Assembly: GCA_012295275.1 (NCBI GenBank)
Contig: CM022665.1
Coordinates: 7,254,001 to 7,318,000 of the forward strand
Direction of reading: 5' to 3'
Source of the DNA: Chrysomallon squamiferum
Taxonomy: Eukaryota; Animalia; Mollusca
Length of the DNA: 64,000 nt
Below are positions 10,648 to 55,185 of the stretch, piece by piece (positions within the stretch are counted from its first letter, which is position 1; the number at the start of each line of letters is the position of its first letter). The notes under the pieces are model-generated. The model had not been told where the DNA came from. It worked only from the letters and a program-made list of their open reading frames with translations, and did not search any database. The position numbers and the translations under genes were made by a program.

Positions 10648-11582
10648 CTAAACAAATTTAGTGGCTAATGACATAATCTTTACAAAATCTCCTTTCTTTG
10701 ATCGCAGTGTTGATGGTACAGGAACAGTGATTCTGGTTCCCAATGGCATTCCATTATCCTCCACTAACACAATATTATTACTGTCAAACCGTGGAGCATT
10801 CGGTTTTTGCTTCTGCTTCACACCGACAATGTAAGCTCTTTTTTTCTGTCCTTTTATGGCAACAAGGATTTTGTCTCCAACGGTTCCAACTCCAGTCTTT
10901 GTGTACACGTGGATGACTCGAGGAGGTTTTCCTGCTGCCACTGCTGCTCGACCAAGCCCACTGTTGTCAACCACGTTCATCCTTGCCAGCTTCCTGATTT
11001 CATGAACACAAGCTGTTGTGCTGAAATCACATTAAGATAATTATTTAACAAAACACTGCAGAAATCTGACTGTACAGATATTAATTCATGAATGAAACAA
11101 AATGTTTAGTACTCATTCAACAATCTAACATTAGTTGGTGTAAATATATTGAAGAATGTTTTATAGACTTTTGAAAAAACAATGTTATTTCAGTATAACA
11201 TGCTCAACACATTTTTTGTTATCTACATGCATATATATCACAACAAATGTATGATTAAGTACCATCCAGATAATGAAAGGAAACCTATTTCCACCATGCA
11301 ATGAGCTATTTACAAATTAATAACATTACCATAAACTGAAAAGCAGACACATGTTTACTATCACTGATCCTACAATTACTAATTGGTATCCATCAGTAAT
11401 CAGCACAAATTTTGTCTAACATTATTTCAAATGTTCTGGGCTGCTGCACTAACGTGTTGTTAATCTTTAATGAGACTTTTTTATATATTTTTGATAAATA
11501 CCAACCTGAAATAATTCTGAAATGAATTCCTGCATAATGGTACAAAATTAAGTTTCCCAAGGGTCTGAGTAAGATGTGCCAT
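10648..11582 (-). CDS. MRPL14: Mitochondrial ribosomal protein uL14m (39S L14), 149 aa, 2 coding exons
   Basis: Exons 11582-11506 (ATG..AG|gttggt) and 11020-10648 (tttcag|C..TAG) join in phase 2 to give MAHLTQTLGKLNFVPLCRNSFQNYFSTTACVHEIRKLARMNVVDNSGLG...GDKILVAIKGQKKRAYIVG...RFDSNNIVLVEDNGMPLGTRITVPVP...LATKFV. The uL14 motifs VVDNS, GDKILVAIKG and FDSNNIVL are present, and the N-terminus looks like a mitochondrial presequence. An acceptor at 11608-11607 implies an upstream non-coding exon. Confidence 0.95.
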
Positions 11583-13474: not shown

Positions 13475-17609
<4,135 letters not shown>

Positions 17610-17612
<3 letters not shown>

Positions 17613-17630
17613 CAACCTTCAAAACTCTGA
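17610..17630 (+). other. Putative stop-codon readthrough extension of MDH1 encoding PTS1 (X-Q-P-S-K-L-stop)
   Basis: TGA CAA CCT TCA AAA CTC TGA directly follows the last MDH1 codon (GCG) in frame; SKL-stop is the canonical PTS1. Confidence 0.8.
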
Positions 17631-19134
17631 CGTGTCAACTTGCAAGTCCATATAAGCTAGTTTTATAACTTAAACTGCAAGTGTGAATGTCAGAACAGCG
17701 AACATTTTTCTTTTAAGTTGTACATAGAATATTATTTGTGGCTCAGAGTAGATTATTATCACCTGTAATTTGTGTTACTTTCTATCACTGTGACTTAGAT
17801 ACAAATATTTCATTGGAAAAGGATTATCAGATACTATAATTTTACTGATAAGTTTCTTAAAAATAATATCTGTCTGATAGGATTAAGTAAAAAAAATAAC
17901 ATAGTTTTCTGCTGTTGGTATTACCTCTGCGTAAACAGTGCTAATGTCTGTAACTACTTAAATATAACTCTATATTCTGTGAAATCAGTGCTAGTGTTTA
18001 GGTGTTTTGTCTCTATATTGGTGCATTAGTAAACATGTTAATTTTAGTTGCTCTTGATATATTAATTAACTGTTAAAAATTTAAAAATTTGTTTGGTATT
18101 ACAGATTACCAGTGCCATGATGAAATTCTTCTTTAGAATGCTGTGAAATTATTAACTTTCTTCATTCTAGATAAAAATCTATTTTATATCCTAGTTTACT
18201 TTTTGGTCATTTGGATATTTATCTAGAAAAATATTTCTCTGTTCAGAAACTTTTTTTGTGAATCATATTCATGCACTACAAAAACATTTGAAGCTATGAT
18301 TACAAGATATACTTAGCTCTCCACATTAAAACAGTATGTACACATATAATATGTATATTTTTTAAATATTAATGATATAGCATTTTTGTTTGATACAAAC
18401 CACAAATCATTAAAAAATTATTTTAAATGCAAAAACATAGCAAATGATTCATTATGTGTATGAATATATAATTGAAACTAACATTTTTTTTTGTTTAATT
18501 AATAGATCATTTTTTAAGTAATTAAATGTAATTTTAAGTATTCACAATACACAACAAAATAAAAAATGATGTCATAGAAAATTTGTTTCATATTTTAAAA
18601 TGATGCCAAATAATCTTTTTCTTGCATAATATAAACTTTTATTTTGGAGTTGAGGAAAGGTAGCACTATATATGGTACTGCACTAACTTTCCAAGTTCAT
18701 ATCAGCTCACTTTGTATTTCAGACCAGTTCTTGTGAAACTTTTGACATAAATGTTTTTTCTGTTTTTCTTGGTTTGTTTTATTTTTGCTTTAAGCTAGTC
18801 AGTTTCCCAGGGTCATGTGGGTTTCCTGTGTCAAATTTTGACATAAAACATAACACATTTGATTCCTTTGGTTTCTGAATATAAAAATATTGAGTATACT
18901 AAGGTCTAATTATGTGTAAATATATATCTTCTTTTTATCAAATCAAAATATGTCATATAGTCTACTTAGAATGAATTACTGGTTTAACTAACTGAATCTG
19001 TGATTTCAGTAACCACAAAGAAATTATTGAAATAATTACTTGACTTTCACTGCCAGTGTCTGTCATACATTCTAGAATCAGCATCATGTAATAAACCTTA
19101 CTATAAATATTTAAATAATCTAATTCAGTTGGAT

Positions 19135-19245
19135 CATGTATTGGTGGTTAAGTGTGCTTGAATGAAATATGATTGTCCACTGGGCTATTTCTTGTCCCAG
19201 CCAGTACCTCACAAATATCAAAGACTGTGGTATGTGCTGCCATCT
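19135..19245 (+). mobile_element. Degenerate SINE-like relic
   Basis: ggtggttaagtgtgcttga (tRNA A-box-like), then cactgggctatttcttgtcccagccagt..aaagactgtggtatgtgct. The 13-mer cactgggctattt recurs near 56801, and blocks of the same recalled gastropod SINE type appear near 55355-55475 and inverted near 11275-11390. Confidence 0.45.
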
Positions 19246-22200
19246 TTTGGTGGCAATAGAAGTTACCTCACGTAGTCTAAAAAGATAGTCTTTTATTAAT
19301 GATGATTTCTGTGGGAATGTGTATGTTACTGATAACAGATTTGTGATGATATGGAGTGGTGGGAACAAGTTTCTTATGTATCATAATCCAAAGAACAAAA
19401 AGTAAATATTTATCAGTTCATTCTACAATGCCATTCCTTGCACTGTGAAATGGAATCCCTTGTTTAAACCAAAATTAATCTCTTCAGTTGTTATTTTCAT
19501 GAAAAGAAAACACTCTTTTCCAAACTTTATTTCTTCAACTGATAGCATCAAAACCGTAACAGTTACCTATAACACAAGTTTTACCAATTCGAATTTAAAA
19601 ACAAAAATATTTACTTTGTCAACTGCAAATCAAACCAACATGTTTGAAAGCAGAAAAGCTGTTTATAATCATTATTTTGATGCATTGAGCAGAATCTATT
19701 CCTGTTATAACCTACAACATGCAAGAATATCTATATTTACAAAAACAACAGCAACAACAAAACCAATCAATTTAAAATTTTAATATTAAGCATGTCTACA
19801 GTAAAGCAATATTTTTGTTTCTTTTTTAGATTATATTTTAGAATGCAGTGCATGCATGTAATTTGAACAGATTTTAAAAACGTACAGAGGAAATTGAGCT
19901 TTTTTCATAGTGTGCACAAATGTCTAACAACTAAAAAGCATTTTTTTTATGTTTGTAATAAGTAACAAATATATCAAATGTCAAATTTAACAAGCAGGTA
20001 TGGATGTTTAATATGGTTAGGTTACAATTCAGACTTAAATATCAGATACATATCAATTTTTGCAGTCTAAGACCAATTCATTACATGGATTTTTTGAGGG
20101 TAGCTAGGAAAAATGAAATACTGAAAGGACTAAAATAACATATATATATAGATCACTTGGAACACCTTTACTGCATTTGGCTGAAAACAGTGCGAAAATG
20201 ACATTCATATCAACAATAAATCTGGGGTTCCTATTTTCATTTTTTCCACATAACTGTCACTGCTGTTTCACTGATAATAACTGCACTGTACCAATGCTTT
20301 TTAAAAAAATAATTACTGCCTCAACTTTAAGACAAAGTTTTGTCTACTGGCAACAGTCAGGGCAGCTGCATGTGCTCCATAATTTAAGATATTTTATCAA
20401 CTGGTAAAAATAATATATTATTCAAATGTTACAGAAAGTCAGCTGTATCTCAAACTTTAAAAAAGAAAACATGTCCACAAAAAATAAATATTTACCAACT
20501 AAAATGTATTGCATGCTTTTACCAAAAAAATAAAAAAATATATATATAAAATATATATTGTTACATTTCATTCCATCAAGTAATTATTTCAAATTATTAA
20601 GCAATCCATTATGTTTATTATTTATATTTATTGTATATTCTTTAGAAAACACTCCATGAAGGAAAACATAAAATATTACTTCTTTTAACATAACATTCAA
20701 GAATCAAATCAGAAAAACAACAAACAACGGCACATTCTCTAATAACACAAAGATGAAACAAAGAAGGTTGTATTATTGCATATGATGCAACAATAAATTA
20801 TACCTCAACTTGCAACATTGTTTTTATAACTAAACTAATTAATAATAAAATAAGTAAAACCTAATGTAGTAATATTTTAATGAACTTGAACATTCATGAT
20901 ATTTAATTATGAAGCTGACAATCTGATTTAAATTACAGTGTATCCTAAAAATTATTTGTATTCAACATATGAATGAGAGCTGTCATTTGTACAAATCCAA
21001 AAGAAGTGGGTTGGAATGTCTGAATCTTTCTCTTCACTAATTAATTTTTTAAAAAGTGTAAATTTTTATTATTCAGAATTAAATCTTTTGTGATCCTTTT
21101 TGTGAAATATTTTACAAATATATAAGCATTTCAGAAATTCCTATTCATTTCTCTTTTGACATTAATACGAATACAGGAAAATAATAGGTACATTACATGT
21201 TTTTATTTTCCAACATTCTTACTGAATTGTTTTATGTTTAAATTCAAAATAAAAATAAATGTAAAAACCAACATCATTATTATGAAACAATTTTTTAAAT
21301 AATAATTTGAAATGTAAGGAGATACTATTAAATAAAAAAGGGGAAAAAAAAAAAAAAAGGAAAGTAAAAATAAAAATCCCAATAATTTCACTGAATATGT
21401 ATTAAAATAACTGAGATGGAAAAAAATTGACAGATGGTACAATAACATTGCATTTCTCAAAAAAAAAGAAAAGGAAAAAAAGAAAAAGTAAATAATAAAC
21501 AAAAAAACAGTTTTTAAAAGTGACTACGTTTCACAATACAAAAATGTAAGACCATAAAGCAAACATATAAATTGTAATAAAGCTGTAAAATAATCATCTT
21601 ACAAACATGAACTTGAATCAAACTTAACAAGAAACAAGTGTATATGCAAAAGCAGGTACTAATGCAACCTTTGTGGTTTTTACATTTCTTGGTTAACGAG
21701 GTTAAATAAATCATACTACATAAAAAGTTATTACGTGATTATAGTTCTGTAATGTGATTTGTTTTTTCTTGTTTCTTTCTAAACTGATTATGCACATTAA
21801 TTAAAATATTTTTTCACTAATACCACATTGAAATTATTACAAAGCTGCACCAAGTCTGATCTGAATATTTACATTAAACAAAACCCAGTTTCCATCACTT
21901 AACTTAAAATAAAAGTCATCTTTAATATAAAACAATACACATGTACATGATGAAGACAATTTGTCTTACAAATGGTTCCCCATTCATATAAAGAGGAAAA
22001 GTAAAGAACACCGCCTCCTAACAGTATTTTTCTAACAATCCCAAAAACCCAGCAAACATAAAATGGACTTTTTTTTTTTTTTTCAGGTGTAAACAATATG
22101 CTGTCACCATTCATGAATTAGTGCAGTGCTAGAATTTCTAACCGCAAATTCTTCTGGGAAAGTAATAGAAGGAAAAAAAAGAAGAAGAAAAAAAAAATGA

Positions 22201-24171: not shown

Positions 24172-25585
24172 TCAATTAATACAGTTCTTCTTTGATGGAG
24201 GAATCAAATGTTCTGGTAATTCTGCTGGAAGATCATGTCCGTCTAGTTTTATCTTTATAAGGTGGTTAGCCAATGCCCACTCTTCTGCATCAAGCATGCC
24301 ATCTTTATCAACATCAGCCAGCTTCCATACTTTACTCAGAACAGAGTTGGGTAACTTCGACTTGACCATTTCACTCTTGGCTGCTGCTCCAGTAATCTTA
24401 CCATTCACTGGATTCAGCTTCTCAAAAGAATCATCATATTCATACTTTTCTTGGGCAACAACCCATTCATGTTCTCCACGACCTTTATCAACCCCTTCAC
24501 CTTTGCCAATGCCAAACGGACTTTCATTGTAACCTTCAAAGGCTCCACCTTTGACTACAGTAATGTCTGAGTTCTCTGCCTCTTCATGTGGAATCATCTG
24601 CATCAGTCTTGCAATGTCATCAGCCAGCATGTGGTCTACTGTCTCTATCAGTTTGGGTTTCATGCTGTGAAACTTTGTAAAGTCGTGATGCTGAAGCTGT
24701 TCTTGCATGCGTTTTAGATTAGGAAAGTCACCTGGTGAGATCTGGTGTTCCATTTGTAGTGCAGTAAAGGTTTCATTCAGTTTGTTAATTAACTCCTTCT
24801 TCCTGTTTTCCTTGCCAAACATTGATGGCATCTCCTTCTTCAAGTGACTAATGATGTATGCATGGACCTACAAAAATAAAATAAAATGATTTTTTGAGTT
24901 TAAATTTAATTTTCTATCAATCTGTAAAACATTCTGTTTCATGGAAAAACACAAATCAAAAGCAAAAATGTGCATACTGAATTAAAACCTGTTGCCATGA
25001 TTGTCTCTTTTTACAAAACATGCTGTAATCAAATGCAGGCATGATCAATTCAATATTTGCAGAAATTCCTAATCTGAAATACTCGAGACCAGAAGTGTTT
25101 CATATTTTGGAATATAAGTTGGTAACCTGAGAATAGGATCTAAGTCTAAATGTGAATTCCATTATAATTTATATAGGGTGTATACAGATAGAAATACAGG
25201 TTTTATTACATAAAAATTTAAACAATTTTGTGCTTTATATAAAGTTTGTATATATATACAAAAATAATCTGAAAAATGTACGATATCACAGGTTCTGCTG
25301 CTCCAAAAATGTTTTGGATTTATGACTATTTTTTTATTTTATTATATATTTTTTTTAATATGAAAAACACCAATTATGGATTTGATAATAATGACAAATT
25401 AAACTTAGGTTTTTCAGTAAGGTGTGAAACTACTGATCACATAACCAACCACACACACTTTTAAAACATTCTATACATGTTAGCAAACTCACATAATATG
25501 TAATACAAATTTGCAGTTATGCATCCAAATATTATTAGGTGTTGTGTATTAATAAGTTTTATACATATACAGAAATTAACATAAA

Positions 25586-25617
<32 letters not shown>

Positions 25618-28590
25618 TGAAATTAAACAATAACAGGAGTTATTTGTATTAAGAAATGAAAAACTAAAAAAGCAGTTTTATTTCCTTCCTTAATTTCTGT
25701 TACCAAAGCAACTGTATTTTTCTTACCACCTAGTTAAATTAAAAATAGCAAAACAGGCATGCTGTTTTTTAGATTGAGGGGTTTGTTTATGACGGTAAAC
25801 ATGGTTTCCATAGTACTGATGATCTGTGAGTCATTCTGGTGTGACAACATCAGTTACAAACATCTCTATGTGCTTGCCAAAAATAACTTGCTGCCAGCTT
25901 ATATTTAGTTTCATAGTGAATCTATACAGTATACTGTTAGGTTAGGGAAAACAAAACTATGTAATGTATTACTGTCAACATACAATTTTATATCCAAAAA
26001 CTTTTTAAAGAAGTTTGTCAGCATTTAACAACAAATATTTCTAAATACTGTTGTGTCTACCAAAGAACATGATTTTTCTTAATTATGAAAAGTATCAGTA
26101 AATAATAATAAAATGCTGACCAGCTAATACATCTATAATAGGGCAAAAATGCCAGGAAAATGTTGCTATCGTATAATCATATGAGATATGTCTTTTAAAA
26201 AGGAATAAATTACATATATAAATTAATTTGTAATCTCAAGTTTCAAGTAATATTTTTTCACAAGTAAAATGTTAGCTGTCCAGAGAGATGTATGGTGAAA
26301 TTAAAGTTCATCAATATTTATGTAGAACTCAAATATTTATCAATTTTGAAGTTTTAAATTTGGTTTCTAAATGAAACTAGACTGAGTAATCTGTTGTCAA
26401 CTTGATTAATTATTTTAGTTCTCACTGACTTTGCCTGGTGGCTTTTTTTTTTTTTTAAATGATTATTATTGTTGTTAGTGTATATCTAAAAATCTATTTT
26501 AAATTACATTCTAAAATATTTGTAAATATATAATCAATATACATAATTCACAAAACTGGCATATTTTATCAGCTAGTCATGTTTGATGTATTCTATTATC
26601 CATTCAAATAAAGATGCATGTCATCCAGAATAAAAAATCTTATAGCTTACTATGTATCAGATGAATCATTGTCACACACACACAAAAATAACTAAATATT
26701 CTGCCATATCAAAAGATCTATGTTTAGCAATTTCTCAGTGAATTATTTCAGTGGGTTTTTCTATTATATAAAAGATCCTTCTGCCCCTTTGTCATTTGTA
26801 CAAGTATGTATGTATATGTATGTGTTTGTATTTCAAATTAGGAATGTTATCTACCCTGGATTTAATTAAAATCACATTATTAAACAGTAATTCCAATCTT
26901 TTTCATTACCCTTTATGCCAACATGAGCACTTAATTAAAAATAATGTCCTTACTGGCAGCATAGAAAAAAACACTTTTATATCACCATCCCAGTTAAGGG
27001 ATGTTCCAGCTTGTTGTAAAACTTGGGGACACAAAAATGCATCTGTAAAAATAATGTTTGGAAGAAGATGCCATTTTTGAATTTGTTCCAGGGCTTTAAT
27101 AACTGCCCAAATTTCTGTAGTGATTATGGATACTGAATCAGGCAAGCTCATGCAAATTTCAGTGTCTCATACAAAATTATAGCACATGCCACAGAATTCC
27201 CATCCCATGATCCATCTGTAAACAGAAATGCAGTCATGGTAACTGTGCAGTGTTTCCATGGAAAGTGGCTGATGGATAGATGCCGCTATACAATCTTTTA
27301 TCAAATCAAGCAAAATCTTTCTTGGTGTGACATAAAGGTGGTATTAAACAAGTGTTAGATGTATCCCACAAATATAATGATGAAAAGGTACTTGATAAAA
27401 ATTTGTTTCAGCACAAATTGAATGTTAGATCTCTTGCTTAGATTAGAATTTTCTTTAGTAATGTCAGCGAATCTATATCATAATGGTGTCAACTATGAGT
27501 TAAAAAAATCCTGAAATAATAAATACATTATAATCAGAGAATTAGAGATAGTGTATCATTTGTATATTAGGTAAGCAGCAATGTTTAAATTCTCATGCCA
27601 TATTGAATATACCTTTTTTTCAGTATTCAACTCAGCATCTTTATTTTAAATTAATAAAATCAAATCAATACAAACCTTGGCTAGACGGGCCCGTTTAATC
27701 AGGTCATTTAACTTTCTGAGAGCAGCATTTCGGGGAAGACTTTGCAAATCTTTGAAAAGATCAGTTTCTTCTAATTCAAAAAGTCTTCTGTTCATATCAA
27801 ATTGTAGTGGCTGATCCCAGAAAGAACCAATATAAACTCTGGCAACTTCTGGTGTATTTAGGACCTTTCCTAATGACCACATCAAAGCTCCATATACTCT
27901 CATCAACTGTTGATGATCTACCATGTCTGCCTTGTTAAGGACAATTCTGATTTTATCATCAAAACCCTTGATTGCATCAATTGCTCTTCGGAACTCGTCA
28001 GAAATGTCAAGTTTATGAGCGTCAAACAACAAGATGATTCTATCAACTCTTTCTGCAAACCATTCCAAAACACCAGCAAAATCGTATCCTCTGTCAACCC
28101 TTTGTTTTTCTCCAGATAAGATCCCAGGTGTGTCAACTATTGTCATACTTCTCAGAACAGAGTTTGCTTGTAGTGAGCATTGGAATCTGTTCAAAAAAGC
28201 ATTACCAAACTTCGATAATGGTCTGAACTGTTTCTTGGTATCAACAACAAGAGCATTTCCTGGTACCATCCCTTCCTGGTCGCCGTACATAACTGCAATA
28301 AACCGATCAGTTGTTGGTTCTGGTCCTATTCTCATCCCCGGAAAATCCTGTTCTAATAAATATCTTATAAACGTTGTTTTACCTGTTGAATACTGCCCTA
28401 TCAATAAAATCATAGGCTTCGCGTCGAAGTCTGGATCATCAAGGGGTGGGGAGTGAAAATCGTGAAATCTATAGTATTCTTCTAGTGGTAGCAGCTTTGA
28501 TTTATAGATTCTTTTCAATCCCTCCACCACATTATTGTACACTTCGGGTTCCTTGTGATGTCGTTCATCGCTTGTTAACCAACGTAACAT
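24172..28590 (-). CDS. EHD1: EH domain-containing ATPase (EHD1/EHD3/Past1/RME-1 family), 536 aa, 2 coding exons
   Basis: Exon 28590-27676 (..RARLAK|gtttgt) and exon 24867-24172 (tag|VHAYIISHLKKEMP..NCIN*). P-loop GQYSTGKT, GPEPTTD, DTPGILSG and NKAD in the dynamin-like G domain; C-terminal EH domain (KLPNSVLSKVWKLADVDKDGMLDAEEWALANHLI). Assignment to a specific vertebrate paralogue is not possible. Confidence 0.96.
25066..25325 (+). mobile_element. Tigger4/Zombi-like non-autonomous DNA transposon relic in the EHD intron
   Basis: cctaatctgaaatactcgagaccagaagtgtttc..attttggaatat..gatctaagtctaaa..aattttgtgc..aaagtttgt..ctccaaaaatgttttggattt follows the Tigger4a/4b consensus blocks as recalled; intact TIRs not evident. 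Confidence 0.55.
26940..27350 (-). mobile_element. LINE relic with RNase H domain (I/Nimb/ingi-type)
   Basis: Minus-strand FLFTDGSWDGNSVACA (27230-27181) and SLPDSVSIITTEIWAVIKALEQI (27151-27083) match the TDGS and S(I/V)FTAE..A...AL motifs of LINE RNase H; frame disrupted. Confidence 0.75.
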
Positions 28591-28664
28591 TGTGATGTAT
28601 TTGCTGATAAAGTTAATACCAAAACCAACTTATATGCCGACTGTCAATTCTCAACCAGAATGAA

Positions 28665-31701: not shown

Positions 31702-34700
31702 TTATTTTTTTGTTTTATGAAGATTTGGAGCTGCCAGTTTCACCTTGCCTGGAATATTTCTTGAAACATCAACATCCTGAAAAATTGTATTAAAATATAA
31801 AACTGTCAGTAAGCAAATTTATCTGTTACAATATTTATACTATGTATAGAATCCTTGTCAAATGATTAAAATTGTAATACAACAACCATAGACATTTTTA
31901 ATGTTATGATTAAACTGAAGAAATTTCATTTTTCTAAATTTTTGGAAATTTAATATTTTTCTTGTAAATATAGTTTGAAGAATAAATTCATTAAAATAAA
32001 ACAGAAAATATTTAAAAAAACAAACAAAATGTTACAAAAATATGACTTGAAAGCAAGAGTACACTACCTTCATTATTCTCAGTAGATCTTTTTCTCTAGA
32101 CGACCCACTCTTTTCTTGTAGAAACATGTTTATCGCAGTTTTAGCAGCTGAAACAAGAACAAAAATGTAGATCAATATTTTTATGAATTATAAACAGAAA
32201 TTCTGTTGTTCATTTTCAAAAAATAATAATGAATAAACCAATATGTAGTAATCAGAAAATTTATTTCTGCCTACATTATTTCAAGTGAAAAACAATATGA
32301 GATGCAAACTCTTTTAAAGGATGAACTCTGACCTTTTCCTCTCTTAGTGTTTCCTGGCAGAAGTTTAACCTTGTATCTGAAAAATAATTAAATAAGTAAA
32401 ATAAATAGAATATTGACAATTATGTGGAAAAGTAACGAACAAACGTTATTTTCTATGACCTAATTATTTATCACAATGTGAATTAAAACCAGTATACTTA
32501 TTAATGAAGCATAATACAAATTAGTATGACACAGTTATGAATAATAATTATTTTCCTAAAAATGAGGAAAATCCTTTGATTGTATTTACTGTAGATATTA
32601 TTGAGGCTGTTGAGAAACAGAAAGTTAGTATTCTGTTAGTAATAGTGTCAGTAATATGTGTAATTGAATTGCAAATGACTGCAAATGGGTTACTGTTTAA
32701 TTTTAAAATCTAGTTATTATTTACTTACTTGTAATTAATCAAACAGCTGTAAGGTGCACACATTGGGATGGCATAAAGAATCTCATCTTCAGGTAATGGA
32801 CAACCAGTCAGAGAGTCCAGAATGTCAGTATCCTAAGTAAAAAAAACCCCATCCCATTAAACTAATTATTATATCATCAAAAAACAAAAATGAAATCTAA
32901 ATATCTGATAATTTTTTACAATCCATCATTCATTTTACTAATAAGCAGCCTTTGTAGAAAGCCATTCTAATTATATTAAGAACATATATGAAGAATGCAA
33001 AGATAAAATTTTCCGTTTCAAAAGATTACAAAGACTGACCTTGATTTTAAATACATTAATTTACATGAGATTTTGAAATCCTAAAGATTCAACAAAATGT
33101 AATCATAAATTCTAAAACAAACCATATAAACAAAAAACAAAAAAATAAAATGTTATAATCCATGTTCTTTAACAGTTGTTATATAACATTTTACAATTTT
33201 CTTACAACTACTAATTATGAGAAAGGTTTAAAACTTATACATACATTTGTTGAAGGTAAATTATCATCCACCTTTTCTTCATCTGAATCGAGAGCCTGAA
33301 ATGACATGAAGGTTTTTTTTGCAGAATATAAATATATTAAATAAAAAGAAATTTGTTTAACGATACCTTAATATATTTTATTATGGTTTATTGCTATTAA
33401 ACATTTCTCTTTGGCTACAACCTATTCCATGCACTTTCTTACTCATTTAATCAAAGGCTGTAGTATGTTATTTTATATCAGTGGAAAAAAAAGAGATGAA
33501 AAATCAATAAGATTTATCTTGAAATTTGTCACAAAATCAAGACTGTACTGAACCACTGGACAATATGTCAAATATATTCTGTTTATTTAAACATAGCTAC
33601 AAAGTAGTTTTACCCACCCTGTCTTTTTCAATTTGTTGAATAATACTTAAATACCAAAGATCTCGGAATAAAAATTGGAAAACAGTTTGCATATTATTCT
33701 TTACATACCTCATTGTTGGCTGGTTTCTTAATATTTTTTGAAGATGATACTTTTTTTTCTTCATCTGAAAATAAAAACAAAACTGAATTCTGAATGCTAA
33801 AGTTTAAAAAAAACAAAAAAAAAAAAAACACTGAAAATAATGCTCTTTTTGTCTCTTTATTAAACAGCAAATATGTTTATTTAAACAATTTTACCTGTAA
33901 TAAAAATTCACCTTACCTGCATTTACCAACATGAAGTGCACACAAGATAAAAGAGGAAATTATTAGAAAAAAAAAATGTAAACAACCTTCTTCATCAACT
34001 TGTGTTGCAGACCCTTCTAAAGAGACATCTGTGCTTTTTTCTATTTTATCCTGACATTCTGTCTGTCTGTTTGTAGATTCTCCAGGTTTCTGAAAATCCT
34101 TTGTTGCTTTCTTTTCTTGCTGCTTATTGATTTGGACATTTTTGCTATTTTTGCCTTTTTTGCCCTTTTGAGATACAACTTCTTTCTCAGCTCCTGCTGA
34201 CTTTGTGAGAAAAATAACAAAATATTTTAATAAATTTAAATAATAAAATAATAATGACAACACAGAAATAATAAAAATCAGTTTAAGATAATGATTATGA
34301 TGCGTTTTTTTAACTGAGAATAATAAGAATTTAAGAACTCTTAGGAAAATGAATATACTGAAACATTTGTATATGTGACAATGATGCAGAATTAATACAT
34401 GCATTCTTTAGCTGAATTACATTAATAAAAACAATAAAGTTTGAAATACATGGTTAGTCACTTGTTTATTTCTCAAAACAGTCATTATAAACTTTAAAAA
34501 AACATTAAAATGAAAATTTTAATGCTTAACAAATTTTTGTTAAAATACTTACTGCCAGTATTTCCATTCGCAATTGTCTCTCTTCATCATCCTGGTCCCT
34601 ATACTTTTCTTTTATTTTTTTCCTTCTCCCCTGTTGAAGTACAACAAGTGATCAATGAAATGTAGACCGTGTCATCATATTTTTTTTTTTTTAAATAAAT

Positions 34701-37700
34701 ATTTACAAAAATAAATCTGCATCTACAAACATGGGATGATTTGAAAAAGTTTTTTTTACCTTCATACGGCTAAAATGATACAAGAAGTTCAGTCTCTTCT
34801 TTACTGTAAATAACTTTTTGAATACTTTTGGTACTTTTCTTTTACTCAGGTTTATCTCTGGAAAACAGAGCCTGTGATAAGGACCGAAATTGCTACCCTG
34901 TTCAAACATCTGACACTCACAAAATCTTTCACAAAAACTTTACCACAAAATCAACTAAAAAATACCAGTCAAGTTTAACAGAAAGTGCTCAGTGGCAGCC
35001 ATGCATGTGTCATACTCGCCATTCCTTATCTACACCACTACCTTTACTGCCCTCAGTTTTATCAGAATCAACCATATTTTCATTGTCCCAGAATTGATAA
35101 TGTCTACTTCAATCACTGTTCAAATTTTAAGATGGCCATATCCACTTTGTTAGTGAACAGGTTCAATCTAATTTGTACTATGTAAACCAAAACTAGATTT
35201 TACCCTTTGTCCTCGTTTTGGCTGCTGAACTGCATTTTCTGGTTTTGTACATGCCTAAGACAAATGAATAAATCAAGACGTTAACAGTGTTCTAAAATAT
35301 AAAATTATAATTGCTATAAGGCAAAAGTAATTTTAGTTCCACAGCTATTAAAAAAAGACGTATGTTGGTTTACCTCAATGAGCTCTAATTATATCAAATA
35401 TTTATAATTTAAAAAACAAACTGATGCTTTCTGAACATATTCTCTGTTTATATCAAATCTTAACAGATAGATAACAATCAAATCTAATGTAAATAATATT
35501 TCATATCAGCAACCGATGTCCATTTCTTTTATTCTGTTTCATTATGGCTTATTTTATCTACTATTTATACTTTATAATTTACCAATTTTTGTTTTTCCTC
35601 CTCCTTTTTTTCTGTTTGTTCTTGTTTTAACCATGACACATTATCTTCATCATCATTAAAACTCTGTTCTCTTTTACCTTTTCTATGAAAAGATTTTATA
35701 TAAACAAAACATATTACAAGACACTTGTTGATTATTTATAAATGATCAACTTTCTTGACCTAAAATTAAACATTTTATTTATCTTATTTTTGTTAAATGA
35801 AAATATTTGTTATCAAAGTTTCATATTCATTAAATCGATTCAAAATAATGTTATAAATCTAATTTTACATTAGATTAACTCACCAATTTAATTATCATAC
35901 AAGAATTTCATTAAAATCAATTCAAAGTTTTACTAACCTTGATTGCCTTGCTGATAACTTTGTTCCTTTGTTGACACACTGAAATAACAATGATTAAACT
36001 AAATTATTACTCAAGCTTAATAGTTACATACAACTGCATGCAGTTTAAACAAAAAATTAGAACAGAAAGAGAGGAAGTCCCTGACCTTTTAGCTGAATGG
36101 AAATATTATGTAATTATTTTAAATTATGTAAATTTTCACAATTCCCTTGCCTTCTTTCCTATGGTTACAGGCTGATTATCTCCAAGGAAGATGATTCTGT
36201 TCCCTTCATCATTCAAATCATCATCTGTGTTTGATGTCCTGACATCCCTTTTCAGTTCAAATCTATAATAAACAAGTGTGTTAAAAAATGTCCAGACAAT
36301 TCAAATTGTAGTATTGGTAGAATTCCAATATAACACACCCAAGTTTTAACCAAAGACAATATGTTTATATAAAATCAAATAATGAATACATCAAACAACT
36401 AATTACAGTTCAGTTATTTCATTACTAGCATTTTTAAATTAGATTTTGTACAGTCAGTATAAGTATACAATATTCAGAATTTGTTGTGTAAATATTAATT
36501 TAAATATTTAAAATAATGTTTGAACACAATTTACCAAAAAGTAAACACAACAACAAATATATATACACTGTATGCAAGCATTTACATATTTCTAAAGCTA
36601 CCATGCAGTTGAATAATTAAGTATCCAAATGTGGAGTCAGTTAGCACTTTTTTTTATCAAGTAATAATGATATACTAACTTGTCTCCTGCAACATGCATC
36701 AAGTTGATATAAGTATCTGGAAATACATCCTTCGTGTCTTCATCTGAATGTTTCTCACTCTCTGAAGTTTCTGAATCATCTGTTTCCACTTTGTCCTCTT
36801 GTTCAGTTATATCAGCAGTTAGTTCATTCAGTGAGTCTGAATTTAAGTCAACACTGCTTTTATGAACAAAACATTCACTGGATGAACAAGTGTCACTTTC
36901 AGTTTTAACATCACAGTTTTCGCTTTCTTTCTTTTCTTCACACTCATCTTTCTGCTCCACAGAAACAACAATTTCTTTAACAGTATCCTTTTCTTCATCT
37001 TCTACAGACCTCACTTTTCTTTCTCCTTTATGTCGAAAAATACTTCCATCTTCAAGCTATCAATTCACAAAAAGATAACAAGTAAAAAATGTAATACTTT
37101 CTCTATAATACATCTATTCTTCATATTAACTTTTAAAATCTATTCCAGTCCAATGAAGAAAAAAATGATTCCATGAATCTTTGTTTATTTTTTCATCAGA
37201 GTAAAATTCCAACTCTAAAAAAATTATTTTCTTTTCTTTATATAAATAAAGGTCTTAAAAATCAAGACAGTAATGCAGATTGCAATAAAATCAAAATATC
37301 TTAAAACAGAAAATATTTATTCTGTATAACCTAGTTACTAATTAGCTAGCTCTGAGGGCCCAAAATACAATGTATTTGATAATAGTTGTTAAATATTATT
37401 AGTGTATAATTATCCTTAGCATGCAGCATAAGTTATTTTTCAAAATAATTCTTAAAATAAAAGCATACCTTAAAGATGTAAGCGAATCCATATATCAAAT
37501 ATGAAGGAGGGAGATAATTTTTCTTTCCTGCAATTAAAAAACATAGACATGATTGAAGTTTTTATTTTAAAGTAACAAGTTGGAAACGTTTTCACATCTA
37601 AATAAGTATTTTGATAACATTGAGATTCGTGCAACATTTAAAGAGATCTGTTTGTGATACAAACATAAATGAATTTTCAATACCTCCAAATACTATTTTA

Positions 37701-40700
37701 TTCCACTGGAAGTATTTACAAATATTTTAATTACATACCTCTGACCATGAAACTGCCAGTAGTTAAATACTCTCCACTTGGTGCAGTTTTTGAAACTTGA
37801 TCATGATACACATACCAAGCACTGGTGACAACTTTAGCATCCCATGCTGCACTGTTGCAAATGGCCATTGTTCCTGCTTCATTCAGTGTTTTGGGTGGGA
37901 CTGGTTCTCCTAGAAATAAAGAACAGTATGTATCTATATATACCTGTATCTGTATATGAAGAGATATCAGAATAAAGTAAAAATATTTTATGTTTTTGAA
38001 TGTATAAAGATCTGAGAGATGAAATACCTGAAGGGTTCTTGATGATGCAGCTGCTAGCACCATGGAGATCAGCATGGACATAAAGATCACCTGTCAAAAT
38101 AATTATAATTAGATTTATGTACACAAAACTTAACTATTAGCTTATGTTAGTACAGTCATTTTAATCACTTCTGAGAAATCTTGTTTTAATTCACAAAATT
38201 AAATACAGAATAAATAATATTTTCAGCCAGATTTTTATTTAAATTCAGCTAAAAGTTAACTGTATTAATCAGTATAAAAAACCTTGTATAAATCTATTTT
38301 AAAATCCTTAAAACAATCAACTGGGGACAAACAGAATTTACACCTGTTTTATGACTAATAAACATTTACCTGGTTTAAGGTATCGTTTGACTATGAGTTC
38401 ATTCTGTTGTTGATCTCTTCCACCTATTACCAGGTAGTTCTCTGAACTAATGAACCAGAGAAACTTCTCAAACCTATAACGAGATATTCTGCATCACTGA
38501 GTTTGCTTTTACTATTTTACATATTGTTACATTTTATTTGACCAGGTTCTTGAAGATATTATAATATTTATATATAGAGTAGACTCTCTAAATCTTGAAG
38601 TTGCTGGGACTTGGATTCAAGTTCAAGATATCATTAAATTTGAGATTATTTTAAAACATTGCTGACTGTTCATACAGTTTTTATTAAGAAGTTGATTGCT
38701 ATCAATATCAGTTAATTCAAATACAACCTAATTTAAACACTTTGAAATGTACATACAGTTCATAAAAAAATATAGTCCTGTATCTTATATCAAATCTTTT
38801 TTAAAAACAAATTAAGAATAGAAACAGTTTTATCAAAAAGTTAATACAAAAGTTTAACTTCAAGGTTTCTGGACTGTCAACTGCTTGATATTGCATCCAG
38901 TAAATTCTTTTTTTTCCATTAAAGTCAGACAACTTAGATAAAGCTTGGAAATGTTCATCAGTTGTCATACTAAATAACTCAAGAAACACTGAAAAGATCT
39001 GATAATACTCTTTCACTCAATCCAGTATGGACAGCATTTTATTAGTACTTTTCTGAAGACAATGTCATGATAATCTTTAAATCACTTTAACCACTCATTA
39101 ATGGCATTGAAATATGAGTGATTTAACCATTGTGACATATTGAAAGAACATTTACTGCCAGGTTTCTGTTCCTAATAGTCTTAACCCACATTAAAACTGC
39201 TTCATCAACATCTGCAAATTTAGCATTTCTTATTGGAATTCAAAGCTCCTTTTTAATTTTATCAGCTGATAATGTGTTATATTTAACACCAAACACCTTC
39301 ACAATTTGTACTTTTGGTTTTGTACCAGTTGTCTCATGTTTTTTTCTCAAAGGAATGTACTGTTAACTTTTTCTAGGATCCAGCCATTTTCCCCTTCCCC
39401 TCAATACTAGCATTAGGTTCTTCATGAACTGTTCACAATATTCATTCTCCGACATAATGCTACAGGAATACAGGAGAAATGTATTTTATTTCGATATCAT
39501 TTCTTACTTAAGGTAACAAGTAATTATTTAACTGTAACCATACCTGATCTTATTCTTTGTAGATACACAATCCTAAATTTACCTTTTGAGGCCACAGCTA
39601 TCAAGTGGATTAAATTATTTTTGTTTGACAGTACTAATCAAAAGAGTTAAACAGTGTGAGTTGTAATAAAGAAAACATATTTGATGATATATTTTAAAGC
39701 ACAATACAGCCCACTGATATAAGACATTTGAGACAATGTGGTATATTCAAATCTCAAGATCTGAAACACACAAACAAATTATTACATGTTAATGTAGACA
39801 AACAGGATGACTTTCAAAAAAACTGCACTGAGGTTTGAGAGTCTACTGTAAATTGTTTTGGATATATGGATGTTGTTTAATAAACAATTACAGACACACA
39901 GATGTAATTGTAATAATCTGTAACTCTGTAAATAGAAGTATATAAAGTATGACATTAACAAATGTTTACTTTCACAGATACTGTCAGACAGATATGCTTA
40001 TTATATACTTACCAAAATGTTTTTCTTGTCTTGTTTATGCTAGCTATTATGGCTACCTCTTTTAAAGTCTGTTTTGCTTTCTTCTGCGCTGATTTAATTG
40101 CCTGTAATAAAGAAATAATTTTTAAAAGGTAAACGAAAGAACAGTATTAGAGTACTGACAATCAGATTATCTAAGAATATATCACGTATGGAAATAGAGA
40201 AAGTTATCAACCAAATCCATTTTCACTTAAATAAAAACAATACAGAAACACTTTGATAAATAACACAGTTAATAAGCCTACCTTTGTTGAAGCATCCACA
40301 GTTTTCTGTTCTTTTTTGGCTGCTAACTTTTTCTTTTCAAAATATCTAAAAATAGGAAAAGACCCTTCCAAAATAACAATAAGAAATCTTGTGAAATTAA
40401 TTAATACACATTTGTTAAAATCACTTACTCACAATGCTATGATGATCTCACAATAAATATTATAGTTACTGTATAAAGAATTTATTTTAAACCAAGAGCA
40501 TCTTAAAACAAAGTATCATAACAGGTATGTTGCATCCTGAATTACTTTATTTTTTTATCACCCAATTCTGATACAGAGAATGAAACTATATTTTACATTC
40601 CAAAATACCATCAGTACATTGATATACACATTTGTATTCACTAATGAACCAACCATTTGGTGAATAATAACGGATGGACTTCAATAAACACTGTGAAAAG

Positions 40701-43700
40701 GTAAATTGTTTTCATATTGTTATGAGTATTATTTGGTACATAACGAATAACTTGTTTGATGTGATCCATGTTTAAATTCAGGTATATGTAGGTTTAGAAA
40801 GATGTAATCTTCAATGTTAACTTTAGTTTTTCTTACTTTCTGGAGTTCGCATAAGCACCCAGAGACAGATCAAGTGTAACTCTTAGAGGTTTTATTGGCT
40901 CATATTCACTATCTTCATCATCTGCATCTTCATATGGGTCACTGAAATAATGTAAATATACAAACATTAAACAACACATATTAATTTTCAAATTTACAAA
41001 ATACAATTAATGTTTCTATCAAATTAAACATGCTATATGAATAAAATATCTATATGAAATATACCTTCTCTGAAAACAAATCATTCTGTTAACAAATTAT
41101 TTTTATACTTCACTAAATTTTGTTACAAAATAATGTAATATAAAGACGTAATACAGATCTGTACCATCTCTATAAAAGCAAGAAAATATTGTCAATAACA
41201 GGAGAGAGATTCCAGCTGAATCCTGCACTTAAAGATACCTGAGAAGCAAAGTGATCTGGTTTGTGTCAAGACAGACAGATCTGATGGCACAGGCTACTGG
41301 ATCATTTATTAACTGAGCTTCTTTTATCAGTTTCCAGATCTCTGTCCAGTCAATCTGATTTGCTACAGCACTCCGTACTCTCAGAAGTGCTTGATCAACC
41401 TAATAAAACAAAAACACTGGTACTGTGAGTGTATAAAAAAAACATACATATTTAACTGAAGCACTTTCAAAAAAAATAATTACACATACATAATTTTCTT
41501 CATTTTTAAATTATAAAGAAAAACAAACAAACAAAAATATTTTTAATTTCCAACAAATTAGGATGCTTTTAACTGTGCTGAAGATTCCCATGAAAAGACA
41601 AAATAATTAATTTAGATTCCGTACGTTTGGTAAAAATTAAGATTTAGACTATTTTAACACATTTTATATGCAGAGTAAGTGTTAACATTTCACAAAAGCA
41701 AAAACAGCTGTTATAAAACTCACCAAAGATAGATTCATCTCTATTAGTTGTCCCCGTAACACATCAATTTCCTTTTTTGAACACAAAAACAATTTTTTTA
41801 TTACAATGAAAAAAAAAATAAATAAAATAATTAAAAAAAAGTAACAAATTAACCTTTAATGAGAGCTAATCAGCTGTTACCAAATAATTAATTCAAAAAT
41901 AAAAAAACCATTAAAATAACAAAATGAATAAGCTGAATATTTAGAGCTGTTTTTGATATATTAATTTCTAAACACAATTGGGATTCTTGTTATTTTTTTG
42001 TCTTAAAGCTAAATAAATATATACTGGATGAATCTTGAATGTGTTGAGAATACAGTCTTTAGTTTACTTTCATTCATGAAAGTCCATTACTTTTAAATCA
42101 TTTTCTAACTGTTTCTTTCAGAAAATAAAAGTAACTAAAGTCAAATAGTTTCAACACATTTTGGGGTTAAAATAATCTGACTGGTTGAAAATGTTACAGA
42201 TACTTTTCTACTAATTATTAAGAGTAGCAACCAGTTTTCCAATAGTGTTTCATATATCCATTTATAAAGGATTAAGAAAACAATTCATGAAGAAATTACC
42301 TGTTCTTTCTGAAGATCACATATTCTTTTTTCATGGTCTTTTTTCACATTTTCAAGTTTTTTCAAAGCTGCTTTTTCCTACAAATTACAAAAATATACTA
42401 GTATATATATCAGATAACTACTTGCATTAGTGTCTTGAAAAACATTTTTTTTTTTTTTTAAACAAATTTAATTTACTACTAGTTCTTTGTGTTCTGCATA
42501 ACAAATAATGGTAATAACTTAATAATGCTCCTATAAAGAAATGATAATAATATAAACATGAATTCATAATGTTTTATTAAACAAAAAAGTTATCAAATTT
42601 GGTACCTGTTGTAATGTTTTCATATCTAACTTCTGGCTTTCAACTTTTGAAAAAAATTCATCAACAGCCTACAAATAAAATTGTTTAAAAATTAAAACAT
42701 TAATTGTACTGACACAACTGTAAACAGAATTACATAAATAAAGTTGAAATTCACAACAATTTAAAACTAAGGTTTAATAATATAATATTCTCCGACACCT
42801 CTGCATTCTAACTATGAGCTGCAGCTCACATGCTCCTCATACAAAAGATTAATTAAGATTAATTTAAAATCTGAGACTTACTCTATCAAAGGTTTCAAAT
42901 TCAGAAAACAATTTGTTTTCATGCTGCCTCATAAGAAGAGGATGAAATTCTTCATATCTAGAATATCAAAATAAATATAATATTGAATTACACAACAAAT
43001 AATCTTTTAACATATAATGTTAAATAAAGGTCCAGGTAAAATATGTTTTTTTAATACATAAAAGACTGATTCAACTTGTCAGAAATTAAACGGTGTCAAT
43101 ATTTTTAATTTTGTTTTTTCTATTAGCAAACTGATAAAGATAAATTAGTTGGGCAGAGAAAACAGATATACTTTAGTAAAACCAAGGAATTTTTTTTCTG
43201 GTTTAAATTCTGTAATATAATCATCATTTATAAATTAGTTACACACATAATAATGTCTTGTGAATCTTGTTCTTTTCTTACTGGTCTCTGGTCCTTTTTT
43301 TGTATAACGAAACCCTGAAAAGATATTTATTTTTTATAGTTTTCCATTTTTTATTTCCTCTTACTACCAAATCAACATGGGTTACAGTTATAAAATGACA
43401 GCATCATTGCCATCTTCATAAAACATGTGAATAGGCAACTCATAATTCATTTTCTTCTGAATTTTGTTTATACAGCTCAACAATCCATTATGGAAAGTCT
43501 GAAAAATTTCAAAAGTGCCTTTCTGTTGTAGAAGTCATCACTGATTAAAGTATATTAAACATTTTTACTTAATTTACTCATTACAAATAAATGCAGTAGA
43601 CTATTTCAATTTGTCTTGGAGAATTTCAGACTAGGAATAACCAATGCAGTTAAGTTTATAAATTATACATAAAATGAACTATTTTCATTTGAAAAATAAA

Positions 43701-43779
43701 TCTGCTATATGAAACAGTAACAAAATTTATTTACAATAATACTGCATACTTTTTCTTAATTTCTGTTACTGGCTCTTCA

Positions 43780-43810
<31 letters not shown>

Positions 43811-46308
43811 GTTAAGATAAAAAATCAGTGACAAATTAAATTACTGAAAATACTGTTATAAAATGGATTTGTTATTTACTTTAGTGTGTTCAGACTTCAG
43901 TTTCTCTAACAACTGTTCAGCCTCCTCTATTGCCAACATCAGTTTTGTCATGTCTGAAAAAATAATTATGTTGCCAAGTATATTTCTTTAAAATAATTTC
44001 AGCAATTGCAACTTTATCGTAATTCTTTTCAACCGTAAACAAAATTAAAATGCAGTAAAACAATATGCTGGAAATACTGGATGTACTTATCTTCTTCTAA
44101 CATAACTGTGAATAATTTTTTTTTGTTTTGAATTATTATCAACATGCCAAAGATTACTATAATAAATACTACAGGGAAACCTGTCTAAATAAGATTTTCC
44201 ATTTGTTGAGGATCTAGTTTAGACAACTTTCACTGCATACATAGTTAGAACAAATGAGGAAATTTATTTAAAATGTGAAAACAAAAATACTTGATTTCTA
44301 TATATATTACCTTCAGCAATATTAAAACCTTTCCCAAGTTTAATATTTTCTGAGAATCCCACTCCTTTCAGGCAGTGATCAAGCAGAGCTGGACCATAAT
44401 CTGTCGGAAATTAATTAATATTAGGATAACAACAGCACAGTACTTTTTAATATTAACAGTTAATTGGTATCAGTAACCAAACAGGTAGGCAGACTACATT
44501 TATCAACTAGCAACAAAGGATGGATCTTCACAGAGAGTGGAAAGCACATAATAGTAAAAGGAAAAGAATGAAACATCATATAGCCTAACAGGATAACTGA
44601 AAGAGGGAAATTCTACAAGGCCAAAGTTTTAACTGTAGAGCTACAACCAGCTCTCATCTCTTAAAAAGTGAGATCACAACATGAGATTAACAAACTACCT
44701 CTCTTTCTCACACAAACACACAAATGAATGAATGATAAATTAAGGTATTTTATTTTTGTTCTTTTCAATTCTAGAATATATAGAACTGAAATTTAATTAT
44801 GATTAACTGAAACAAAATATATTAAATTTTGTATGAATGTCTCCTCATATAAGCTGAAGTCTATGGCCTGAGTGAAGTTTAGTTTAGACAAGTTTAATCC
44901 TGTTTAATAACACTGATTAACTGCATCTGCAACAGAAAAATAAAAGACTGTTAGTATTACTTGAAACATCACAAATATTATTGTACCAACCTAAATTTGG
45001 AATGAGCATCTTTTTCAATGGATCCCCCTCCTTTCCAGACAAAATAATTTGCTGCAATCTGAAAAATAATATTTTCAACAAATTAAATTAAAAACCTTAA
45101 AAAGATCGCTATTTATTAAGTTTTTACATAGATTTCTTTTAAAAACTAACATAAATAACCAGTATAAATTAAAAAAAAAAAAAAAAAATCAGTGTTTGAA
45201 CAAACACTGCAAAGAGTTACTTATTTCATTGCATTATCTTAATTTTTCTGAACATTCACTTAATTTTTATGACAATCATAACACTATCTGCAGACTAACA
45301 AACTGTGCTAGAATGAACATCTGTAAAGTGTAATAATAAAAACTGCATTAAAATAACAGTAAATAATAAAACATGGAGATTTCTTGTGTTATCTTTCTTC
45401 TTGTGAAAGTAACAATATCAAGCTGAATTAAATCAAATGGTGAATGATTCAAAAATGATCTTTCTAATTCAATGGCTTCCAAGGTAAAAAATAATTAATA
45501 CAATTTTAATCCCATGAAGTTTTCAAATTTACTTTTCTTTTGTAGGAACTTCATGTTGCTTTGCTGCTTCTAATGGATATCTTTCTCTGACAGCATAACA
45601 GACTTCTTGACTAGTGTCTGTACGTGGCCGCAGAATGTTTAAAATATTATATTCATAATCTGTTAGAACAATGTTACCCTGAAAAAAAAAAAAAAATACT
45701 GTTGTTGAAGTATATGTATGAGATAAAAAAAAAAAAACCACCAAAACAAACCCTAATCCGAAAATAATAGTTATTTTCATAAACAAAATGTTATTTCAAC
45801 TAGTGTGTAACATTATTCTTTTAATTAAACCTTTAAAAAAAAAAAGATTAAAAATCTAAATCATCTTGTAGAAAGCTGCATTTACAAATTTAAAATATTT
45901 AATCTGGTGTATTAAATTTGCATCAGTATTTATTTCAGTTAAACACAAATGTAAAATAAATTCATTAAATGATTTTAAAATATTACAAAATGTTATGTAA
46001 AAATATTCATACCCTATCATACAATTCCAGAATGATGTGGTATGCTGCTTCAGAAGAACCAAACTGCAGATCAACAATTCTGTCAATTCCAAGCTGTGTG
46101 ATAGATTCAAATCGACGACCCTTTAAATGTTTTCTCATCTAAATACAAGAAAAAATAGTTTTAAATATCAAGTTCAATAAATTACTATGTGCATTATGAA
46201 TCTGTACAAAATATTACTTAGGAATGTTATCAAATATTCTAAACACAAAGTATGACACTTACACAGACATCTGCAAATTCATTTTACAAAAAACCCATTA
46301 TAACCTGT

Positions 46309-50801: not shown

Positions 50802-52922
50802 AGTGAATCACATATTCGCCGAGACTCGTCGTACGAACGTGCATATATAATTTAAGCTGCTTCCGTAACGCTGAACAGTTCGTTATGTCTGTAACTGACA
50901 AGTACAGTCGATCTAATTAACTGCTGCAGTTTCCTATTTATATTATTATTATTAGTAGTAGTAGTAGTAGCAGTCTTCTTTTCATTTTGTTTGCTTTTCG
51001 GATTTGATTAATGTTTCGGAAGTAGAAAGTATAATTCTGCAGTTTAGATCTACATCTTGTTAGCAGAGGTTTTACTAAAAAATGTGGGTGCTTTTCCAGA
51101 AACATGAAGACTCCGCTCATTAAACATATTTCTATTACAAGAAACATTTCTACAGCGATACCACAGCTGCTTTCATTAACATTGGAAAAATTTATTGGTG
51201 TGACAGTTTTGACAAACTAAAGTAGGTTTATACAATTTTATATGATATTTTTGTATCTGCACTATCAGTTAATATATATATATATATATGTAATTAGTAG
51301 GTAATATATACGTACATAACTCACTAGTTACTGACTATATAAAATCCTCATAAAACAACTGTTCTAGGAACAAACAACCAAGACGGATTTTCAAATCAAA
51401 GGGCTTTAATAATAGGTATTCTCTGATATAGAAATATAAAAGAACACAACAGTGTAACTCTGGCATTTCGAAGGAGGACAAACTGACCAGGTTCAGAAAA
51501 CTGTATTTAATTTATACAAAACATAATAAACATTCTACATTCGTAAAATCAGAACAAATCAAACTAAAACTAAAACCATGACAAAAAAAAAAACGCTGAT
51601 GTTTTGATAAAAAGAAAATAATTCCAAACAAATATATTCAACAAACATATAATCAAATACATAATATTAATATTCAGTTCAATACAATCAAATCTGAGGA
51701 GAAGTCAATTACATGCCTTTAAATATTAATATCAACTGTCAAAGTGTATTACTCATGGCTTCCGGGAGGAACTGTTCATGAATAAATCTGCTACACTTCA
51801 ATATTTCCTATCCATATTATTACATGATCTCACATGATAACACTTAGCCAGATTAATTGGTTTCATTTCATGTTTATTTATTTCTCGCACTTGGACACGT
51901 GATATACTAATATTAATATGAGACATCTGCCTGTAATCATTTCTACCGCTTACGTTAACTAGAACCAATTACATTGTATTAAAGTCTCCATAAAAATCCT
52001 TTATACATATATTAGATAATAATTAAACCATAAGCTTTTTGGATACGTTTATAACTTTCTATAATTATTATTCATATTTTGGGTACAGTGAAAACATAAA
52101 TATAATATCACTGAAAATTTATATTTAAAGAAAAGGGTAACAGCTATCATGTGAAAACTAATACAGATCACGTTAATTATTATAAATTGTTACCACTGTT
52201 ATTTATTGTTATGACAAGACATTTAATAAATTCTGCGCTAGCATATTCAAAATAAATGAAAGTCCACAAGTAAAATATAATTTTGGTCTCATCTTTAATA
52301 TATAATAGCTTAACTATTCGTTTTAGTAGACATAATAAAATGAAAGCAATAAGAATACATTAATTACTTATCTTAGCTGATCTATACCACATATAAGTGA
52401 AATCATAATACACCAAATATAAAAATGTTTTCCTTCACTAACAATTATTTAAGGTCCTGTCATGTCAAGGGCCAGAGTGCAATCCTTGCTCTCTGTGAAT
52501 GTTCCCTCTTAAATTATAGGCAGCAGTTGCCATAAAATGGTCATGTGACATTACCATGCAGTTCTAACGAAAGATCCCATTAGGAAGCAGCGATATTAGC
52601 TTTTCTAGCTAGCACGTACTCCTCTCCCATTACTTTTATGAACTGATCACTTCAAAAACATAAAATACTGACATTTATAGAATAGGAAACAATGGTTATT
52701 ATTTTTCTGTTTTACACACATATATATATTTTTATATTTATATATCGACATGTCTCTCATTTAATCTTTTTATTTGAGCATATGCATTACTAAACAGAAA
52801 AGTAATTAACTAATTCAGTCAACAAATTTATGTATTTTAATAAGTAACCACAAAATTAGATTTCATTTCCAGAGAATAACTAATGTAATCAATTTCTTCG
52901 TTAATTTAGAACATTCGACACA

Positions 52923-55185
<2,263 letters not shown>

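Follow-up and report, generated by a model that had tools for sequence, protein, structure and literature searches.

The DNA analysed here, hereafter the window, is a stretch of 64,000 nucleotides of contig CM022665.1 from Chrysomallon squamiferum, and it contains on its forward strand a malate dehydrogenase gene of eight exons, in which every intron is of the GT-AG type and the spliced open frame encodes 332 amino acids. The coding part of exon 1 consists of the ATG alone (13475-13477), followed by a GTAAGT donor; exon 2 (14414-14512) carries the NAD-binding motif GAAGQIA, and the coding sequence continues through exon 3 (14785-14881), exon 4 (15178-15353), exon 5 (15638-15760), exon 6 (16317-16493), exon 7 (16957-17067) and the part of exon 8 that precedes and includes the first stop (17400-17612). 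In the exon-by-exon scan, the eukaryotic cytosolic MDH family (TIGR01758, MDH_euk_cyt, NCBIfam) was the top family for all four exons scanned, namely exon 4 (E 1e-21), exon 5 (E 7e-17), exon 6 (E 1e-18) and exon 8 (E 1e-23), and the best PDB matches of exon 8 are cytoplasmic malate dehydrogenases (E 1e-25). Furthermore, the sequence P0002, 90% identical to the window MDH1, scores 521.7 against this family, with a cut-off of 470.4. The MDH1 of Gigantopelta aegis is 90% identical to the spliced window product, and a quick 44-row tree places the two as sisters with support 99, on a long branch of their own (0.27); this position makes a gastropod the most likely source. The residues R92, R98, N131, D159, R162 and H187, which we take to be the catalytic and substrate residues of MDH1, are all found. 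Judged from its sequence, the gene is an intact cytosolic malate dehydrogenase, MDH1.

The surroundings of the gene can be described briefly. An exon of an L14-family ribosomal protein lies on the reverse strand at 10648-11031 (TIGR01067, E 1e-13), head-to-head with MDH1 and about 2.4 kb from its ATG, and is probably that of the mitochondrial mRpL14. The other neighbours in the list of open reading frames look ordinary, and are presumably an EHD-like gene (24172-28629, reverse strand), a NEMF-like gene (33913-45795, reverse strand) and an exon of a major-facilitator transporter (52905-54098, forward strand). Lastly, a long acidic open reading frame with a six-residue repeat (EVGEHS/T-like) occupies 57606-59239 on the forward strand.

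The feature of interest is the end of exon 8, which reads, at 17598-17630, GCT TGT CAG GCG TGA CAA CCT TCA AAA CTC TGA. The spliced frame closes at the TGA at 17610-17612, and this first stop stands in the context TGA CAA CCT (17610-17618, forward strand), that is UGA-C, not UGA-CU. It is followed in frame by five codons for Q-P-S-K-L (17613-17627), of which the last three form the canonical peroxisomal targeting signal (PTS1) SKL, and by a second TGA (17628-17630), which would leave SKL at the C-terminus. The arrangement reported by the first-pass annotation, a TGA at the end of the MDH1 coding sequence followed by in-frame QPSKL and a stop, is therefore borne out by these bases and by the eight-exon frame, and two features of MDH1x are found here: a UGA as first stop, and a stop-closed in-frame extension that ends in a PTS1. 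The first polyadenylation hexamers occur at 18325-18558, well 3' of the tail, so that the transcript would likely include it.

How often would such a tail arise by accident? The canonical PTS1 consensus is [SAC][KRH][LM], and it was counted as this regular expression. Across all six window frames, the MDH1 locus included, SKL ends 6 of 8849 stop-to-stop segments (0.07%) and the canonical consensus 16 (0.18%); the MDH1 tail is the sole one of these 16 that is preceded by TGA-C. Under a first-order Markov model based on the kilobase 3' of the stop, the rates are 0.07% for SKL and 0.25% for a canonical PTS1, and the background of the broad PTS1 consensus, taken from PMC8919083, is 4.4% in the window. 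Neither shifted frame at the MDH1 stop ends in a PTS1, and none was found in the extensions, of 1 and 2 codons, behind two further genes of the window that were inspected. A genome-wide scan at rates of 0.07-0.25% would nonetheless regularly meet SKL tails by chance, and for this reason the case depends on the identity of the gene as MDH1 and on its relatives.

Metagenome contigs were scanned with aligned last-exon sequences, and 61 loci were obtained. Ten of them (L033, L051 and L053-L060) were dropped because their true stop could not be seen or their frame was broken, and ten more were set apart as non-animal on the basis of best hits and the tree; the remaining 41 loci are animal-like and form 19 clusters when grouped at 80% nucleotide identity across the 200 bases that precede the stop. 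The taxon labels used below come from a quick tree and best hits. One large mixed clade, of 22 loci, is treated separately, and the counts refer to the other 18 clusters. A canonical PTS1 lies in frame past the stop in 8/18 clusters, compared with 1/36 off-frame (Fisher p 3e-4, unchanged when the large clade is added as one negative), and the broad consensus is found in 13/18 in frame and 4/36 off-frame (p 1e-5), p values that overstate independence because the clusters are related. A TGA precedes all 13 of the tails that fit the broad consensus, and none of the four clusters with another stop has a tail. The first-pass annotation had held an SKL after the MDH1 stop to be unlikely by chance, and both the rarity of such ends in the window and the excess in relatives agree with it; in related invertebrate MDH1 genes, a TGA with a PTS1-like end in frame is kept much more often than the off-frame control would give. 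Against this, in the large clade a PTS1 by either consensus is found in 0/22 loci in frame and in 6/44 shifted frames. The trait can thus be lost. Among the ten non-animal loci, no readthrough PTS1 tail was found.

The distribution within the positive clusters is informative about how the signal evolves. All four gastropod-like clusters (L001, L002/L004, L003 and L007) have a tail, ending in PKL, SRL, PKL and PRL, respectively. Five related arthropod-like loci (L037-L039, L042 and L052) keep SRL or SRI across spacers that range from 5 to 17 codons, with codons that differ synonymously, a pattern that fits what is expected if selection acts only on the frame and on the tripeptide. Moreover, three of the five clusters lacking a readthrough tail end directly in GKL, GKL or ANL: the main frame closes in these tripeptides in L005 (1097), L006 (1058) and L027 (1714), and in AKL in P0165. 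As read from these C-termini, some lineages have shifted the tag into the main frame itself. Given the excess of in-frame over off-frame PTS1 ends in relatives, all of them after TGA, the tail of the window gene is very likely an inherited and selected signal, the product neither of convergence nor of chance. The first-pass annotation had left deep conservation and convergent evolution as equal options; conservation with turnover of the signal is the part that stands, as gastropod-like and arthropod-like loci share the arrangement.

Some loci deserve a separate mention. A database protein matching L001 (P0138 / P0238) is identical to a 331-residue MDH1 and carries in addition a W and a 14-residue tail ending in PKL; apparently the TGA was taken for a Trp codon in gene calling, which exposed the hidden tail of L001. 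In L012, the assembled frame is broken just upstream of the C-terminus (1000-1160), possibly through an assembly error, and its in-frame tail ends in HKL while a shifted frame ends in SKL. Within the large clade, L010, L011, L013, L015 and L017 (stops at 1490, 1568, 1705, 1644 and 1649) have TGA-CT and an in-frame tail closed by SPL-TAG, and among the five there are synonymous changes and a single insertion of 6 nt; the other 17 of the 22 loci have TAA, TAG or TGA-A and no SPL end. These SPL ends were considered as PTS1 and rejected, since SPL matches neither consensus and members of the clade that stop with TAA have similar CCG-TAG ends; they may represent a conserved element of the UTR or a tag outside the canonical form.

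The bases after the first stop set the window gene apart. TGA-CT is used by 10 of the 13 positive clusters, whereas the window has TGA-CAA, and its UGA CAA C does not match the UGA-CU(AG) class of high-readthrough motifs, in which the UGA-CU(A) element was reported to be necessary for efficient readthrough (PMC4207609). The TMV-type motif CARYYA is approached by CAACCT at five of its six positions, not at all six, and all six bases are reported to matter (PMC4132726). In HeLa cells, according to PMC4359377, the human TGA CAA context of FBXL20 gave 0.10% readthrough, against 2.91% for MDH1 and 1.55% for LDHB, and several TGA CTC and CTT contexts gave low values as well (0.13-0.66%). The short context alone therefore predicts low readthrough in human cells. 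The stop of the window MDH1 nevertheless likely works like the UGA-CU(AG) members despite its other context. Three positive clusters have a PTS1-like end behind a non-CT context, namely L007 (TGA CGT, PRL), L035 (TGA AGT, ARL) and L012 (TGA ACT, HKL). A degenerate pattern of the exact tail of the window was found in 0/61 loci, and no close relative with the CAA context was met among them. The different stop context stressed by the first-pass annotation is real, but the shortness of the extension is not unusual, as tails of 4-5 codons occur in 4/13 positive clusters. The non-CU stop context is the one point in this gene that is of interest to specialists.

A hairpin is predicted at 17626-17694 on the forward strand, beginning 13 nt past the first stop and holding the second stop in its base, with the same stem in two folds. 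Its z score is -2.68 over 90 nt (3/150 shuffles), a stretch picked after the stem had been seen, -1.24 over 111 nt and -1.01 over 161 nt; in the 161-nt fold a short helix upstream ends at the first stop. The hairpin is absent from the four gastropod-like loci that were folded, and z scores below -2 were obtained for 3 of 18 relatives folded likewise, none of them gastropod-like. The predicted hairpin, a lead with weak support and no conservation, might compensate for the weak UGA-CAA context.

Taken together, the gene quite probably gives rise, as in other animals, to a minor peroxisomal isoform, MDH1x, by UGA readthrough into QPSKL. A small share of ribosomes would misread the first UGA, add X-QPSKL and stop at the second TGA, and the extended product would end ...ACQA-X-QPSKL. 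If human MDH1x is a guide, the UGA would be decoded by a near-cognate tRNA carrying Trp or Arg, the two residues reported at the MDH1 UGA in human cells (PMC5133446); again as proposed for the human isoform, PEX5 would import the PTS1-bearing enzyme, which would regenerate peroxisomal NAD+ via a malate/oxaloacetate shuttle. Readthrough probably occurs at a low rate, that of basal leakage at UGA-C, which the hairpin on the 3' side may increase. A low rate suffices for a small peroxisomal compartment, and such signals are patchily distributed, in the view expressed in the review PMC9549241, which the patchy pattern among the relatives fits. The tail most probably goes back to an arrangement ancestral in animals, with spacer length, tripeptide and, in this lineage, the post-stop bases turning over since. 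A more specific version, which we regard as unlikely, holds that ancestral MDH1x was kept while its UGA-CUA leak signal was swapped for UGA-CAA and a hairpin 13 nt downstream, with the second stop sequestered. If true, this would be a natural swap from sequence-only to structure-stimulated readthrough on one orthologous gene and, taken with the relatives that have UGA-CG or UGA-AG, would mean that selection keeps the targeting tag and not the leak motif.

Other explanations have to be weighed against readthrough as the source of a functional isoform. The tail could be a relic, an ancestral SKL extension in which a change from UGA-CU to UGA-CA cut readthrough to an irrelevant level and decay is still pending. 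The 0.10% measured for TGA CAA in HeLa cells (PMC4359377), the prevalence of TGA-CT among the positive clusters and the existence of a whole clade without PTS1 are in line with it; however, the tripeptide is SKL, the strongest form, the second stop is intact, and the clusters with a PTS1-like end behind a context other than CT (L007, L035 and L012) suggest that low readthrough is enough. The long branch shared with Gigantopelta would also have given time for neutral decay, if the change of context is old. We consider the relic improbable. It is very improbable that the tail is expressed by another route, be it splicing past the stop, the insertion of selenocysteine or a conversion of UGA to UGG by A-to-I editing: the predicted hairpin beside the stop and the position of the stop at the end of a helix in the 161-nt fold would suit such a route, but no AG acceptor lies between the two stops, which rules out alternative splicing into the tail, the interval 17400-19400 contains no SECIS or other Rfam family (E up to 5) beyond two chance-level matches, which speaks against recoding of the UGA as in a selenoprotein, and the relatives keep TGA with a C-enriched context, the signature of readthrough. 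Finally, that the SKL is an accident of the 3' UTR is hardly credible, for although 15 further canonical-ended segments occur in the six window frames and chance tails behind genuine genes are to be expected in a large scan, the expectation is 0.07-0.25% per stop in the one enzyme where the tail is predicted beforehand, all four gastropod-like clusters have one and neither of the two other gene ends examined does.

Readthrough into QPSKL, the preferred reading, places the gene in a known family. The novelty attached to the first-pass reading does not hold: Stiebler et al. 2014 (PMC4207609) already report a cryptic MDH1 PTS1 conserved across animals, Hydra included, and vertebrate MDH1x was described by Hofhuis et al. 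2016 (PMC5133446). With animal MDH1x, as described in these two papers, the window gene shares the enzyme, the UGA stop, the C at +4 and the in-frame PTS1-ended extension; it differs in having UGA-CAA rather than UGA-CUA(G), a tail of 5 codons rather than the 12 or more residues of vertebrates (PMC4207609 Table S2), SKL in place of CRL, SRL or SSL, and a predicted 3' hairpin, while in human MDH1 the short context by itself determines readthrough (PMC5133446). Mammalian LDHBx (Schueren et al. 2014, PMC4359377) is similar in being a cytosolic NAD-dependent dehydrogenase with a short PTS1-ended readthrough tail, but it is another enzyme, restricted to mammals and with a UGA-CUA context. Among gastropods, PMC4207609 (Fig. 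S3) has a predicted readthrough SKL in a metabolic enzyme, the IDH1 of Aplysia californica (TGACTA-N16-SKL), already in print, again in another enzyme and with the canonical UGA-CUA context; in the Drosophila MDH1 listed in Table S2 of the same source, a directly encoded ...SNL* gives the same peroxisomal outcome with no need of readthrough. No paper on molluscan MDH1 readthrough was found in a search that left most subscription journals outside, and the species of Fig. 4C of PMC4207609 may include a mollusc; the available portions of PMC5100048, PMC7026636, PMC10471768 and PMC12233894 describe no molluscan MDH1 tail. The mechanism is thus already known across animals, and what is new here is a gastropod member with unusual post-stop bases.

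The significance is accordingly modest, since one gastropod is added to a mechanism reported across animals. The gene is useful as a test case. Screens for hidden PTS1 filtered on TGA-CT, as in PMC4207609, would miss the window gene together with 3 of the 13 positive clusters, and readthrough-derived peroxisomal isoforms may be undercounted. Furthermore, a low basal leak at UGA may suffice to supply peroxisomes with an abundant enzyme.
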